DNA from: a virus
Lineage: Duplodnaviria > Caudoviricetes
Length of the DNA stretch: 31,336 nt
IMG/VR virus record: IMGVR_UViG_3300038797_000015
Location: 1 to 31,336 of that record
Strand: one strand, 5' to 3'
Shown: piece after piece, positions 9,428-19,420 of the stretch
How the letters are laid out: each line of letters starts with the position of its first letter
Position numbering within the stretch: the stretch's first letter is position 1
The notes under the pieces: model-generated
Databases searched by the model: none
Told to the model about the DNA's origin: nothing
What the model saw: only the letters and a program-made list of their open reading frames with translations
Position numbers and translations under genes: made by a program

Positions 9428-9635
9428 AATAGGTGCGCGTGTCTTCCCACGCTGCCAGCCAAAGACCTTCCCAGCGTCGACGCCCTATTGCATCGATCTC
9501 GCTGTATTGGTCTCGCGCCACCCCGCAAGCGTGTGATGGAACAGGGTGCGCGGGCTGCCGGTGTTGATTCCGTACGTCGCACTATCCGGCTATCGACGTC
9601 CAGGCTGTCCCGAGGGCTGTCCTGGCTACAGGTAA
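9428..9635 (-). ncRNA. Candidate structured RNA in the late leader
   Basis: No credible ORF; several stems (CCAGG/CCTGG, GCCGG/CCGGC, CGCGCACCC/GGGTGGCGCG, GCGTG/CACGC) between two terminators. Confidence 0.4.
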
Positions 9636-14981: not shown

Positions 14982-15833
14982 ATGAAAATTACTGATCGAA
15001 TTGCTGCCCTGGTTCTGGCTCGAAAGCCCGAGGTAGGCGCGCGCGGGTATAAGCGCGATATTGCGACAACCTGCGGCGTCAGCTATGAAGCTGTGCGCCA
15101 GTGGTTCGCCGGTGATACCGGGAATATCAAAAACGATAACCTTCGGGCGATCGCCGAGGGCTACGACACGACCGTGGACTGGCTGATCTCCGGGAAAGGT
15201 GAGCCGCCTCGCCGCTCAAGCCCTCAGAAATCGGTCGAGCAATCGAAGCAGTCGTCCGCCGACCTTGTTCAGCAGATGCTGGCCAAGCACGGCAAGAACC
15301 TTTCGGATGACGCGAAGCAGAAGATCGCCGAAGCAGTCGCTGACACGGAAAAAGAGGTCAAGTCGAGCAACGTCATTCCGGCTGACTTCTCAGGCTTGCG
15401 CGCCCGGGCGGATGAGGTGCTGATCCCGCAGTACGACGTGCGGGCCGCCATGGGTCATGGCCAGGTTCCGCCGGACTACAACGAGACCGTGCGCAACCTG
15501 ATCGTGCGTGAAGACGTGCTGCGAGAGAAAGGCGTGACCTTCACCTCACTCAATGCCCTGGCGGTGATCACCGGCTGGGGCCAGAGTATGGAAGGCACGA
15601 TCAACGACAAGGACCCTGTCATCGTTGATCGAGGCGTGAATGAGTTCGTCGGCGATGGAATCTACGTCATCACCTGGCACGGCCTGCTCTACATCAAGCG
15701 CCTGCAGATGGCGGATGAAGATCACTTCTGGCTGATTTCTGATAATGAGAAACACAAGGACCAGCAGGCACGGATCGACGACGTGACGATCCATGCCAAG
15801 GTTCTATTGATTTGGAATGCGAGGAAGGCCTAG
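14982..15833 (+). CDS. cI: CI repressor, HTH plus S24 autopeptidase
   Basis: HTH GVSYEAVRQW; catalytic GQSMEG and YIKRL; AMG cleavage-loop region. Confidence 0.95.
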   Translation: MKITDRIAALVLARKPEVGARGYKRDIATTCGVSYEAVRQWFAGDTGNIKNDNLRAIAEGYDTTVDWLISGKGEPPRRSSPQKSVEQSKQSSADLVQQMLAKHGKNLSDDAKQKIAEAVADTEKEVKSSNVIPADFSGLRARADEVLIPQYDVRAAMGHGQVPPDYNETVRNLIVREDVLREKGVTFTSLNALAVITGWGQSMEGTINDKDPVIVDRGVNEFVGDGIYVITWHGLLYIKRLQMADEDHFWLISDNEKHKDQQARIDDVTIHAKVLLIWNARKA

Positions 15834-15975
15834 GTTGTACCGGCTAACAGCCAAACCTCGCTGCGTTAACGCCTATGGCGCGCCCAGGTTGTCAGGCTTA
15901 GGACCTTTCTGCGCCTCTTCGCAAATCCTCGGCATGACCGCCGGGTAAAATTTCATGTATATCAAGGGATTAGAT

Positions 15976-16899
15976 ATGAAAAGTGGTCTGCCGGGCGCCG
16001 CCCCAAAACAGTTTGCGCTTGAGCTTGGCGTCGAAGTCCAGAGAGATGTAAACGGGATCGAAATGGGCGTCCTCGAGAACGGAATTCCGTTTCTCACGCA
16101 GCGTGGTTTGTCGCTGGTCACGGGAGCCCACCGAAGCCTAATTCAAGATATCAGCCAGGAGTGGGAAGATCATTTTGATGATGAGATTCTGACGAAGGAT
16201 CGGATTTCCTTTATCAAGCAGTATCTCTTTCAGCGAGGCTATACGGATCGCAAGCTTTATATCGAAACCATTCGGGATGGTAGTCCACACTACGCCTATC
16301 CTGACATCGTTTGCATGGCTATCCTGGAGTTCTATGCATTTGAGTCTAGGACTACCAACCAGGTAGCCCTCGACAGCTACAGAAACTTCGCGACCTACGG
16401 CCTGCAGAGATTCATCTACGACTCCCTAAATTACGCCCCCGGGGATAAGTGGCAGTTTCATCATGAGCGGGTCTCGATACTAAACAATGCCGCGCCGCTT
16501 GGGCATTTCATTGTATTTAATGAAATCACAGGTCTAATCGTTGATCTCATCACGGCCGACCTAACGGTTAACCATAAGACGATTCCGGATATCAGCGTTG
16601 GGCTGATGTGGGCGAAACACTGGAAGGAGTTCAATCTCGGCTCAATCTATGGCGAGAGAGTTCCATGCCAGCACAATTACCCTGCCAGATATCCCCAAGC
16701 TAAGAGCAATCCACAAGAAGCCAGCGCATACCCAAATGACGCGCTTGCTGAGTTTCGCCGATGGTTCAGATACGACTATCTGGTCACCAGGTTCCCGGAA
16801 TACATCCTGAAAAAGGCACCGACGCTCAAGGGTGGAAAAGACGAAGCACTGAAGATCGGGTCGATGTACGCGCCTCATAAGCCTAAAGGCATAAACTGA
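15976..16899 (+). CDS. bstA: BstA-family abortive infection protein (307 aa)
   Basis: MGVLENGIPFLTQRGL, PDISVG..WAKHW, HNYP..YPQAKSNPQ, ALAEFRRW motifs recalled from BstA; located just downstream of cI as in BTP1; AAGGGA RBS. Confidence 0.8.
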   Translation: MKSGLPGAAPKQFALELGVEVQRDVNGIEMGVLENGIPFLTQRGLSLVTGAHRSLIQDISQEWEDHFDDEILTKDRISFIKQYLFQRGYTDRKLYIETIRDGSPHYAYPDIVCMAILEFYAFESRTTNQVALDSYRNFATYGLQRFIYDSLNYAPGDKWQFHHERVSILNNAAPLGHFIVFNEITGLIVDLITADLTVNHKTIPDISVGLMWAKHWKEFNLGSIYGERVPCQHNYPARYPQAKSNPQEASAYPNDALAEFRRWFRYDYLVTRFPEYILKKAPTLKGGKDEALKIGSMYAPHKPKGIN

Positions 16900-16924
16900 C
16901 GGAGCGCTTCCCGCAGATGCCGAC

Positions 16925-16950
16925 AAGCCCGCCACCGAGCGGGCTTTTTT
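16925..16950 (+). terminator. Terminator between convergent bstA and DUF1654 genes
   Basis: AAGCCCGC-caccga-GCGGGCTTTTTT. Confidence 0.8.
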
Positions 16951-16957
16951 GTGCCCG

Positions 16958-17275
16958 TCAAAAAGGCGCCGGCGGCTCTGCCAGCTCCACATCCCCAGCT
17001 TCGACCGGCCGATCCTCATCGCTGGCCGCCTCCCACTCCAGGGTGATCGACTCGTCCTCGTCGTTGATGGTCATGTCGATACCGTCAGTGTCCGACAGGA
17101 TCGCCAGTAACTCATCCCACTCCTGCTGACCGTCCGTATCCAGGCGGTGAATCGTCACCTCGCGGTCAAGCTGGGCTTTCGGGTGGTTGATCATTGACGA
17201 GACGCGCAGCACCAGGCGCTCCATCCCCGTCATCGGCTTCGGCCCCGCTTCCTGTTTCTTCCCCTGCTTCGCCAT
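16958..17275 (-). CDS. DUF1654 family protein
   Basis: ERLVLRVSSMINHPKAQ...IHRLDTD...W motif; downstream of an SOS box. Confidence 0.8.
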   Translation of the reverse strand: MAKQGKKQEAGPKPMTGMERLVLRVSSMINHPKAQLDREVTIHRLDTDGQQEWDELLAILSDTDGIDMTINDEDESITLEWEAASDEDRPVEAGDVELAEPPAPF

Positions 17276-17298
17276 CAAAAATCCATCCTGTGAATTAG

Positions 17299-17314
17299 CT
17301 GTACATCCATACAG
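17299..17314. promoter_or_regulatory. LexA (SOS) box
   Basis: CTGTACATCCATACAG fits CTGT-N8-ACAG. Confidence 0.85.
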
Positions 17315-17329
17315 TACGAAAAATAAACA

Positions 17330-17384
17330 CAAGCGTACTTGCATTCAATACACAAGCATGCTTTTATAAATGCAAGCCGACTTG
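17330..17384. promoter_or_regulatory. OL operators (3 sites) / pL region
   Basis: CAAGCGTACTTG 17330, CAAGCATGCTTT 17353, CAAGCCGACTTG 17373, matching the OR consensus. Confidence 0.85.
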
Positions 17385-17403
17385 CAAACGAAACATAAGC
17401 AGA

Positions 17404-17465
17404 CGGCCAGGGCCTCAACAGGCCCGCCGCTCTTTAGCGACACCCCTTGCCGGATCAACACCGGC
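17404..17465 (+). promoter_or_regulatory. nutL-like site: boxA flanked by hairpins
   Basis: CGCTCTTTA boxA consensus at 17429 with GGGCCT/AGGCCC hairpin before and GCCGG-atcaaca-CCGGC after. Confidence 0.55.
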
Positions 17466-17704
17466 CCAGATTCACAGGCAGCGATGAACCGGCCTCAACG
17501 GTTCAGAGGGTTGGCAACTGACCCGGGCGTGCAGCGTAAAGCGCCAAGAACAGTTATCCAGCGGGAGAACAAGCCGAAAGGCCCGCGGCTGGAAGAACAA
17601 CACGATTCAAGCCAGTGACGGCCGCCAGTAGCGGGTCACGGCGCCACAGATTTACTGATGCCGCTTCGATGAGGCGGCATTGGAAATCAACGGATGGCAA
17701 CACG

Positions 17705-17893
17705 ATGACCGAGGCAGCAGCTACACAAACGAAATGCACCTACTGCGGTAAGCCAGCCGAAAAGGTGGTTCGCCGCAGCATTCACGATCGAACTCGCGAT
17801 CCATACACCAACCGTCAGGTGCTTCGCACTCGAGAGTTGCCGTTTTGCAGCGCAGAGCATGCAAGCAACTACAAAATGGGCTGCGAAGGCTGA
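17705..17893 (+). CDS. Small zinc-finger protein (62 aa)
   Basis: CTYC...FCS..H..Y motif; first ORF of the pL operon. Confidence 0.7.
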   Translation: MTEAAATQTKCTYCGKPAEKVVRRSIHDRTRDPYTNRQVLRTRELPFCSAEHASNYKMGCEG

Positions 17894-17957
17894 ACGGGCC
17901 TTTTCACTGATGCACCTGGTGACGGGTGCATTGGGAAAACAACCGGAGGGCAAGACG

Positions 17958-18254
17958 ATGGAAGTTGTATTTCTCGCAGACAGCGCTTCAGTCGAAGCGT
18001 GGAAGCTGGACAAGATCCGGGTAGTGGTTGAGGTGGAGCCGCAAGCGTTGCTCGAAGATCTTGATGTTGAAGACCGAATCAAAGGTCTCGACGAGCGCGA
18101 AGTAATCACCGCAATGGGGATTAACAAGACGCTCAACCTGCTCAACGAAAAAGAGCTGACCGACTGGATCAAGAGCAGCGATTGCGATCCGCTCGACCTT
18201 CTCAACGCAATCGGCGAAGAGTCAATCCACGAGTGGCTCAACTCGCAAGAGTGA
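17958..18254 (+). CDS. Acidic hypothetical phage protein (98 aa)
   Basis: GGAGG RBS; D/E-rich. Confidence 0.8.
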   Translation: MEVVFLADSASVEAWKLDKIRVVVEVEPQALLEDLDVEDRIKGLDEREVITAMGINKTLNLLNEKELTDWIKSSDCDPLDLLNAIGEESIHEWLNSQE

Positions 18255-18306
18255 CAACCAGCGCCACGACAGCCTGTCGTTAACTGCCCGATCCTCTCTA
18301 TGAGAG

Positions 18307-18472
18307 CGCATCGGAGGTGATCTTCAGTCCCGAAAGGGTCTAAGGGCGTCGAGCTGTAAGGTCAACCCTGCGAGCCGAAAGGCTGACAAATGCGGCGGGG
18401 TTCCGAGCCCTTAGATGGGAGTTCGTAGGAAAGGCAGACCTGGCCACGGCACTGAAGATTACCTCCGATGCG
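18307..18472 (+). ncRNA. Candidate structured RNA module 1
   Basis: 22-bp closing stem with one G-U, nested stems, two GAAA tetraloop hairpins. Confidence 0.6.
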
Positions 18473-18601
18473 GATGCACGCCCAGGCTGATGGGCAACGA
18501 CGCAGGCTCGCAAGTGGGGCGCCGACGGACTTCGGTTGATCGGCTCGGTTGAACCTGACACTTCACACCCAATCCGGAGATCAGCACCGGGCATCAGCAT
18601 C
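18473..18601 (+). ncRNA. Candidate structured RNA module 2 (kissing-loop cloverleaf)
   Basis: GATGC/GCATC closing stem, complementary loops GCTGA/TCAGC, cUUCGg tetraloop. Confidence 0.55.
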
Positions 18602-18624
18602 ACCCAACCCAACCGGAGATCACC

Positions 18625-18768
18625 ATGCTCCTACTGTTCCTGATCGGCGCAGCGCTCAGCCATGCGCGGCCAGAACCGCCATCTGATGACGGCCTGCCAA
18701 CCGGTCCCTTGCGCTTCCATCGTGAGCGCTGGCGTTCTCGACCGGGGCTTTCGGCGTTCTGGCGCTGA
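18625..18768 (+). CDS. 47-aa peptide with hydrophobic N-terminus
   Basis: GGAG RBS; MLLLFLIGAALSHARPEPP...; followed by a terminator. Confidence 0.55.
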   Translation: MLLLFLIGAALSHARPEPPSDDGLPTGPLRFHRERWRSRPGLSAFWR

Positions 18769-18803
18769 CGGTCCCGCCCAAAAACCTGACAACTACTGCA
18801 TCC

Positions 18804-18834
18804 GAAAGCCCGGACGTCCAACCGGGCTTTCTTT
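18804..18834 (+). terminator. tL-like terminator
   Basis: GAAAGCCCGG-N8-CCGGGCTTTCTTT. Confidence 0.75.
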
Positions 18835-18937
18835 ATCCCACCTCTATTACGTCAGCACTCCTCCCCCGCGCCCATCGGCAACCAGCGGGAGGCATGAGTG
18901 CTGACGAATACAGGTGAACCAACGAATGGAGAAAGTC

Positions 18938-19201
18938 ATGAATAAAGACAATGGCGGGCCAGCTTTCCCGGTCGCGGACTACGACCACATGATTTTTCAG
19001 CCGACGACAGTTGCCGAAACGAAGCGTGATTTGTCCGGCATGAGCCTGCGCGACTATTTCGCGGCCAAGGCGCTGGCGGCAATGATCCGCAATACCGTGC
19101 GCAGCGTCGGTCTTGGAGTCAGCTACCCAGATAACAACGCCAACTTTGCCCTCGCAGCTTACGCCGTGGCCGACGCCATGCTCGCAGCCCGTTCCGCCTA
19201 A
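18938..19201 (+). CDS. Conserved phage protein (GGPAFP...GMSLRDYFAAKA family)
   Basis: Recognisable motif ending AYAVADAMLAAR; GGAG RBS. Confidence 0.85.
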   Translation: MNKDNGGPAFPVADYDHMIFQPTTVAETKRDLSGMSLRDYFAAKALAAMIRNTVRSVGLGVSYPDNNANFALAAYAVADAMLAARSA

Positions 19202-19222
19202 CCCCAAACACTGGAGGTCGCC

Positions 19223-19420
19223 ATGAGCGATTGGATTCCGATTGATGGATTGCCAGAGCGCTCCATCGGTGCCCGCTACCGAATGATCCTCGACGGCACA
19301 CCTCAGGTCTGCCAAGAAATCGAAATGGAAGGTACCCGTAAGCGCTGGTTTGACGGCGAAGAGAACGGCGCCTTTCCCATCGATGACATCGAGTTGTTTA
19401 AGCCGATCCCAGCCGAGTAA
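19223..19420 (+). CDS. Hypothetical phage protein (DUF551-like start)
   Basis: GGAGG RBS; MSDWIP...LPE. Confidence 0.75.
   Translation: MSDWIPIDGLPERSIGARYRMILDGTPQVCQEIEMEGTRKRWFDGEENGAFPIDDIELFKPIPAE

Follow-up and report, generated by a model that had tools for sequence, protein, structure and literature searches.

A conserved kissing-loop RNA scaffold with exchangeable inserts in phages and prophages, related in frame to STnc100

STnc100 (RF02076) is the described RNA closest to the one reported here, and neither it nor the other named relatives, namely the element between dicF and dicB in the Qin prophage of K-12 and the T4 species 1 and 2 RNAs (rnaC and rnaD), has an established function. 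C4 RNAs, which are also phage-borne, are processed from a longer transcript, and the GOLLD and ROOL RNAs are several times larger. For PasD, structurally homologous to STnc100, the available parts of two accounts (10.64898/2026.05.13.724894, PMC8550237) report Hfq binding and RIL-seq targets, and for rnaC and rnaD the accessible text of PMC9697503 gives the function as not known. The literature passages available on the Qin element describe no function; they do record RNase III processing at Qin, in PMC6212723 as a paired cut in vivo at 1649454 and 1649584, and again in 10.1101/2023.04.14.536235. Here we describe a new STnc100-like phage RNA frame that combines a covarying 6-bp kissing helix with exchangeable inserts, and that offers a structural model and a candidate processing route for phage non-coding RNAs of this kind.

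The window, that is, the whole 31,336-nucleotide stretch of DNA analysed, is a 31-kb record of a lambdoid, Pseudomonas-type phage. On its minus strand lie the portal, terminase, holin, NinG/NinB and replication genes, and on its plus strand, after the repressor and BstA genes, come small genes, an exonuclease and a methyltransferase. Given the annotated CI-like repressor (14982..15833, plus strand) and the replication, lysis and packaging genes on the opposite strand, we assign the RNA array to the early (pL-like) operon. The BstA abortive-infection gene (15955-16899) immediately follows the repressor, and two imperfect 36-nt repeats, 43 nt apart (17323-17401), are probably early promoter operators; no sigma-70 promoter match was obtained in 16800-19300. 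The module under study sits in a gene-free stretch of this operon (18255-18624), where Rfam returned nothing at gathering score or E 10 and ARAGORN returned no tRNA, and its non-coding neighbours in the window have matches in Pseudomonas phages (20 of 22 records). The non-coding stretch opens with a conserved leader element (18255..18294, plus strand), matched in Pseudomonas phages, with a perfect dyad at 18266-18280 that has compensated variants in loci L647 and L656 and may serve as an operator or a nut-like site; the 3' part of this element is found again in K-12 Qin, ahead of dicF and within the RNase III stem. The first reading frame past the module is a candidate 47-aa ORF with a GGAG site (18625..18768, plus strand), called from the sequence alone and without a match in Pfam. 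Further along, a 22-bp hairpin (18850-18906), common to phiAH14a and other Pseudomonas phages, precedes an ORF at 18914 and is a further candidate RNase III stem. The late leader forms a second non-coding cassette region of the window, with a Proteo-phage-1 RNA (RF03044, 78.7 bits) on the minus strand at 9553-9631 ahead of the holins; this RNA family also occurs just upstream of the module in loci L015 and L036.

The module, 135 nt on the plus strand (18467..18601) with ends set by homology, consists of a kissing-loop scaffold plus an insert, and the covariance model R1, built without the window, has its only match there (18469-18603, 49.6 bits, E 1.3e-11). In order along the plus strand it comprises the 5' strand of the closing stem P1 (18467..18476), as delimited by homologues; a 3-nt linker, CAC (18477..18479), which is AAT in 178 of 205 cores; hairpin P2 (18480..18495), which contributes loop bases 18486-18491 as the 5' side of the loop-loop helix; an exchangeable insert of 77 nt (18496..18572); hairpin P3 (18573..18591), with 5 bp and a 9-nt loop of which bases 18580-18585 form the 3' side of that helix; and the 3' strand of P1 (18592..18601), after which comes an A/C-rich tail that has no CCA where a tRNA would carry it. 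Every motif named in the initial annotation, which had read the region as a cloverleaf with kissing loops, is present: GCCCA (18480) and TGGGC (18491) with the loop GGCTGA (18485), CAGG (18503) and CCTG (18554), GCCGA (18521) and TCGGC (18540), CTTCGG (18530), and CCGG at 18574 and 18587 around the loop AGATCAGCA (18578). The pairing registers had to be revised in part. The 5-bp closing stem GATGC/GCATC gives way to the 10 bp indicated by homologues, 18467-18476 with 18592-18601, which include one G.A mismatch at 18596, a T in relatives; the last hairpin, CCGG/CCGG as proposed, has in homologues a stem of 5 bp (18573-77/18587-91); the loop complementarity GCTGA/TCAGC, upheld by compensatory changes in the family, can be extended to 6 bp (GCTGAT 18486-91 with ATCAGC 18580-85); and the GCCGA/TCGGC stem stands, whereas the UUCG said to cap it caps a short inner stem beyond a 2x2 internal loop. 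Nor does this second module start immediately after module 1, as had been stated: it overlaps the 3' arm of module 1 by 6 nt, and 18467-18472 double as the end of that arm and the beginning of P1.

The family was collected in several ways. A seed search with the 16-nt first hairpin gave 81 IMG/VR loci in 73 distinct contexts, in most of which the first hairpin leads, across an unrelated stretch, to the second hairpin and then to a strand that can pair with the one preceding the first. Later scans either allowed any loop or required altered second loops (two scans aimed at loop variants), and a descriptor requiring the stems and blind to the loops gave 246 distinct matches; of these, 224 with 8-9 nt loops and the standard linker were kept, yielding 160 distinct cores, and the 22 left out for other loop lengths or linkers include several real variants with longer loops. 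A scaffold with a different first hairpin and last loop, one of the other cassette types of these arrays, is seen in loci L082, L112, L145 and L153. The constant parts are the closing stem, the 3-nt linker, the hairpin, the 5-bp hairpin and the 6-bp loop-loop pairing.

Over 59 distinct loop pairs, 313 of 354 base pairs of the loop helix are kept, against 281.6 +/- 3.7 after shuffling (0 of 10,000), in a test that ignores relatedness and keeps three apparent chance matches in. The compensated loop forms accompany different closing stems and inserts, and double changes occur at four of the six positions, in 8, 9 and 13 cores at three of them and in 2 at the fourth; the exceptions are loop pair 1, broken in 31 of 160 cores, and pair 2, broken in 8. 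The closing stem varies freely yet stays paired, with double changes at pairs 3-7 in 19-100 of the 160 cores. Of the 160 cores, 148 retain pair 7 of this stem, 117 pair 8 and 59 pair 10, counts that arise partly by construction, the descriptor having demanded 6 of 7 pairs; the inner two pairs of P1 and the CCGG of P3 were fixed by the search patterns. An alignment of 60 short members (A1) has 97.6% of 1380 cells paired, against 29-49% in slid controls, and double changes at 12 of 23 pairs (0 of 500 shuffles, which again take no account of relatedness). Furthermore, in a metagenome set picked on the first hairpin alone, the second hairpin and the closing stem are found in 77 of 102 sequences, with compensatory changes in P3, and the other 25, some of them with short flanks, fail the strict rule. 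RNAalifold, applied to seven close relatives, returns P1, P2 and P3. The non-coding, structured RNA with kissing loops that had been proposed is thus supported by compensatory changes across relatives, and on this comparative evidence we regard the structure as very probably real. At the variable pairs, G.U is far above A.C (46 against 2 at loop pair 6), and 26 of 223 loci contain a tRNA gene, in 26 of 26 cases on the member's strand, from which it follows that the folded molecule is the plus-strand RNA.

Taken singly, the sequence is no more stable than its shuffled versions (z -0.66), and the fold of lowest energy differs from the proposed one; forcing the scaffold costs 3.8 kcal/mol in the isolated module, pseudoknot energy excluded, and 11.6 kcal/mol with module 1 intact, and two random loops of this size give a 6-bp Watson-Crick match in 0.3% of trials. 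It is the comparative evidence, and not the single sequence, that lifts the loop pairing above chance. Non-conserved loop complementarity, or translation as a conserved protein, had been named beforehand as grounds for dropping the proposal; what we found is the complementarity given above and, for the region, no match in PHROG or Pfam. A fold due to chance, or a piece of a coding region such as the 90-codon minus-strand ORF 18340-18612, would agree with the poor z score and with two minus-strand frames that are open in 115 and 110 of the 224 members, but all three plus-strand frames carry a stop, and the insert lengths are uniform modulo 3 (66/76/82), which argues against a reading frame. In view of these points and of the covariation, seen in the loop-pair shuffle test, in alignment A1 and in the independent first-hairpin set, we consider this reading refuted and give it practically no credence.

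The inserts range from 21 to 171 nt and fall into 148 unrelated clusters among the 224 members, so that the search of phages and prophages confirmed the variable middle arm that had been predicted. The window's insert type has 8 members with 7 different upstream and 4 downstream neighbours, and the window's upstream neighbour is paired with another insert in locus L022; one insert with many neighbours and one neighbour with another insert indicate that the cassettes are shuffled, in line with the array of cassettes that had been suggested. Within the window's insert, the hairpin 18521-18544 shows compensatory changes and swaps its loop among UUCG, GAAA and AAGA, and the candidate CAGG/CCTG pairing is invariant in 7 of 7 aligned relatives and is not predicted by RNAalifold. 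A short pseudoknot in the insert is possible between 18511-18514 and 18568-18571; a GGG/CCC of the insert becomes GCG/CGC in loci L123, L646 and relatives. As a class, the inserts have a weak folding signal (median z -0.5, with 14 of 148 below -2), and weak folding together with lengths down to 21 nt fits a tolerated loop as well as it fits a cargo.

The letters of the frame are much more conserved than pairing needs, which suggests a partner or an activity of the frame itself. One may then imagine that the frame does the work, as a tRNA-like shape that serves some host protein as decoy or ligand, for instance a tRNA-cutting defence nuclease or a tRNA-processing or modifying enzyme, the insert being tolerated or secondary. 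The near-invariant loop and junction letters beyond pairing needs speak for it, as do a 7+5 bp stack like the acceptor and T arms of tRNA (a 7-bp acceptor-like stem in P1 adjoining the 5-bp arm P3), the position among tRNA genes in phages P1 and D3, and the weak folding signal of the inserts. We nevertheless hold this explanation to be unlikely, for the RNA has no T-loop, CCA stands at the tRNA position in 12 of 205 cores, and compensatory changes preserve the structure of the window's insert, which moves from frame to frame.

If, on the other hand, the module were a carrier for a base-pairing sRNA, the insert or the tail would present a seed against phage or host mRNAs, either Hfq-dependent, as with PasD, or C4-like. 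Variable inserts would then mean variable targets, and the Hfq binding and RIL-seq targets of PasD, as given in the available parts of those accounts, point the same way. Against the rest of the 31-kb record, which is a partial phage genome, the insert has chance-level matches of 9-11 nt only and no cis antisense target; a terminator-like U run follows in only 23 of 224 members; there is no C4 hit in the window or in the 29 loci scanned; and the chromosome of EPEC E2348/69, home strain of the Pas sRNAs (PasA-D), holds no member, R1 giving there only fragments with E 0.48 and 0.63. Such a carrier therefore appears improbable.

Members are found mainly in phages and prophages of gamma- and betaproteobacteria. 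Phage P1 has two, after tRNA-Asn and tRNA-Thr; the HK620 member lies in the late leader between qut and tQ, the D3 member between tRNA-Met and tRNA-Gly, and those of the lytic phages T765 and IME11 inside kilobase-long gene-free clusters. In P1, HK620 and D3 the family is unannotated or lies under spurious hypothetical proteins. RNase III-processed early leaders of lambdoid phages are known to act in cis, and the module might likewise be a cis-acting processing or leader element, which sets the stability or translation of downstream sequence after RNase III cleavage, or a put-like antiterminator. Its early and late leader positions (the window; HK620), its mutually exclusive pairing with the upstream stem, a ribosome site and an ATG no more than 60 nt away in 49 of 224 members, and the place of the Qin sister directly before dicB would all suit such a role; but 175 of 224 members have no such start within 60 nt, members occur between tRNA genes, twice in one region of phage P1 and inside the gene-free clusters of lytic phages, and the double cut removes the sister from the message. 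We rate a cis role as unlikely, slightly more so than a working frame.

A pattern scan of the genome collection gave 101 loci, mostly by chance, 17 of which have the family loops and closing stem; the 17 true loci include Pseudomonas, Morganella, Pantoea, Rouxiella, Comamonas, Achromobacter, Pseudoxanthomonas and a Magnetococcales bin. R1 matched 20 of 151 genomes in a Pseudomonas-centred genus sample, several of the matches being partial or weak, and 6 of 151 in a sample of the same phylum, the centre genome included in both counts. BLAST matches occur in 1043 of 5426 complete E. coli genomes, with partial matches counted. The K-12 and Sakai chromosomes show the last hairpin with one mismatch and nothing more. 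Full members are also seen in contigs labelled as a Verrucomicrobiota bin (L400) and a Geminicoccus bin (L326), either mis-binned phage contigs or a sign of a wider host range.

Other RNA elements accompany the family. Upstream of the module, at a distance of a few hundred bases, HK620 (L305, ~2190-2330), T765 (L637, 1265-1345) and IME11 (L639, 1255-1340), and also loci L189, L197, L243 and L352, have a tmRNA-like stretch that combines a resume context with a tag-like frame of 10 residues (e.g., ANDDVVLMAA, ANDEQFLAVA). ARAGORN finds no tmRNA in T765 or IME11, and the latter has a weak Rfam permuted-tmRNA score (33.1 bits, cut-off 47); the stretch may represent the coding part of a split phage tmRNA. 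Other cassette types in the same arrays (L084; L306, 2330-2395; L307, ~2570-2660; L637; L639) comprise true T-arm RNAs with large inserts inside long stems, STnc100-like units and a recurring GCCGG-AGACGTA-ACCGG hairpin.

How the module may be released is suggested by its upstream neighbour and by the Qin sister. Module 1 (18307..18472, plus strand) is a 26-bp stem (18307-18332/18447-18472) around a 114-nt structured core, and this stem, 92% complementary, has the length of about 20 bp or more expected of an RNase III helix. The overlap is a family trait: of 180 distinct upstream regions, 56 have a strong helix with a 3' arm that runs into P1, against 0 of 180 shuffled and 3 of 180 at a displaced position; the other 124 have no high-scoring overlapping helix, and P1 itself extends to 14-24 bp in 14 of 224 members. 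R1 weakly matches the Qin dicF-dicB element (17.1 bits, E 0.019), which Rfam scores as STnc100-like at 34.4 bits, below cut-off. The paired Qin cut bounds a 130-nt piece whose start lies 9 nt ahead of the linker and whose end lies 2 nt past the closing stem; by the positions in the accessible report, the cuts fall exactly at the ends of a 9-bp closing stem with a 2-nt overhang; another Qin 3' cut in that material, 1649251, has the same context as the stems preceding enteric members. Since the sister is cut at both stem ends in vivo, maturation by RNase III is likely for the module as well, and, with the register transferred from Qin, we infer that the module 1 stem is cut near the 18466/18467 junction. 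Read mapping with four raw RNA runs gave 0 reads in three and 7 partial reads in the fourth; locus L189 is present in six RNA-labelled assemblies and two doubtful ones. A core acting as a small self-cleaving or ligating ribozyme that cuts up the array would be another source of ends. Small ribozymes do have a compact, pseudoknotted core with a variable periphery, and the highly conserved core here is of that kind; still, no Rfam model of a known self-cleaving ribozyme matches and RNase III already explains the ends of the sister, so we judge a ribozyme very improbable.

The working model that we favour, to which we give about an even chance, is that a conserved scaffold, likely released by RNase III, persists as a compact, end-protected RNA and that the insert is its working part. 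Its stems, loop pairing, strand, exchange of inserts and neighbours and overlap with the upstream stem are established by comparison of relatives; the RNase III evidence belongs to the sister family, and its transfer to the phage kissing-loop family is by analogy. During early-operon transcription the module 1 stem would form first and hold the start of P1, being favoured by 11.6 kcal/mol. RNase III would then cut this stem, creating a 5' end at about G18467; the module's own 3' strand would displace the short duplex left over, and the 10-bp closing stem would form. P1 would stack on the 5-bp P3, and the loop-loop helix would lock an L-shaped, tRNA-like body whose 5' end is paired; the insert would be displayed at the place of the anticodon and variable arms of a tRNA. 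Where the closing stem reaches about 20 bp, a double cut could excise the unit directly. Weakest among these inferences is that the inserts are trans-acting domains, such as protein ligands or decoys in phage-host conflict, and not tolerated filler.

A bolder and more doubtful extension, which we put forward tentatively, would be a natural RNA display of proteobacterial phages, in which a standard kissing-loop chassis and an RNase III-triggered strand switch present well over 100 different domains, shuffled by recombination at the conserved ends, in arrays of trans-acting effectors. If true, these might include decoys against host defences, making the arrays an RNA counterpart of the hotspots of anti-defence proteins. 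More generally, the constant frame makes the question of function testable, as frame and cargo can be separated; if the inserts are effectors, their 148 types would be a new pool of phage-host conflict RNAs, and the frame could offer a natural substitute for engineered tRNA scaffolds.

With regard to known RNAs, no Rfam 15 family matches the module, and the closest is STnc100; the initial annotation's suggestion of an undescribed system therefore holds insofar as no Rfam family matches, but the frame is shared with STnc100. We found no description of the family in the literature, and a search with the motif letters returned unrelated eukaryotic papers; a survey of 10,006 candidates (PMC10690425), available in part, may hold a model. 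The accessible parts of PMC5737381, PMC11109978, PMC12197685 and PMC10690425 do not mention the family, those of PMC8201110 give no term matches, and the scaffold-and-insert design is absent from the available portions of the STnc100 and PasD accounts (10.64898/2026.05.13.724894, PMC12370729, PMC8550237). An identity as a tRNA was rejected, ARAGORN and Rfam detecting no T-loop or cloverleaf and CCA being as rare as noted above. The C4 and CI tRNA-like antisense RNAs (RF01695) are likewise phage-borne and multi-stemmed, and a C4/CI/IsrK-type RNA, our first idea, was dropped for want of Rfam support. GOLLD and ROOL, to which no Rfam match was obtained here, are structured RNAs frequently found close to tRNA genes and in prophages, with function unknown in the accessible text of PMC5737381.

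The T4 species 1 and 2 RNAs are small stable RNAs from a phage tRNA cluster, and rnaC resembles the module in a terminal 5-bp hairpin with large arms before it; it differs in its true T-loop, which has no partner in a first hairpin, and R1 does not hit the T4 region. The Qin dicF-dicB element has an STnc100-like frame, lies in a non-coding stretch of an early prophage operon and is preceded by the same short leader motif as in the window, but it has the sister loops and a long stem encloses it; the window's module instead overlaps the stem upstream. The STnc100 model gives no window hit at E 10, and its best score on a member is 29.4 bits (L062; cut-off 47). Nevertheless, STnc100 and the phage family have in common a closing stem ending in UG/CA, an AAU linker (the window having the CAC variant), a GC-rich hairpin, a variable middle, a 5-bp CCGG hairpin stacked on the closing stem, a GC kept in each loop, and an occurrence in prophage leaders and in the same arrays (phage P1, T765); 81 of 93 STnc100-type matches have this same frame. 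What sets the two apart is the second loop, which in the STnc100 type has 5 nt (AGGCA) and leaves only the GC/GC dinucleotides complementary, while the phage kissing-loop family has a 9-nt second loop and a covarying 6-bp helix and, unlike STnc100, is found far beyond the enterobacteria.
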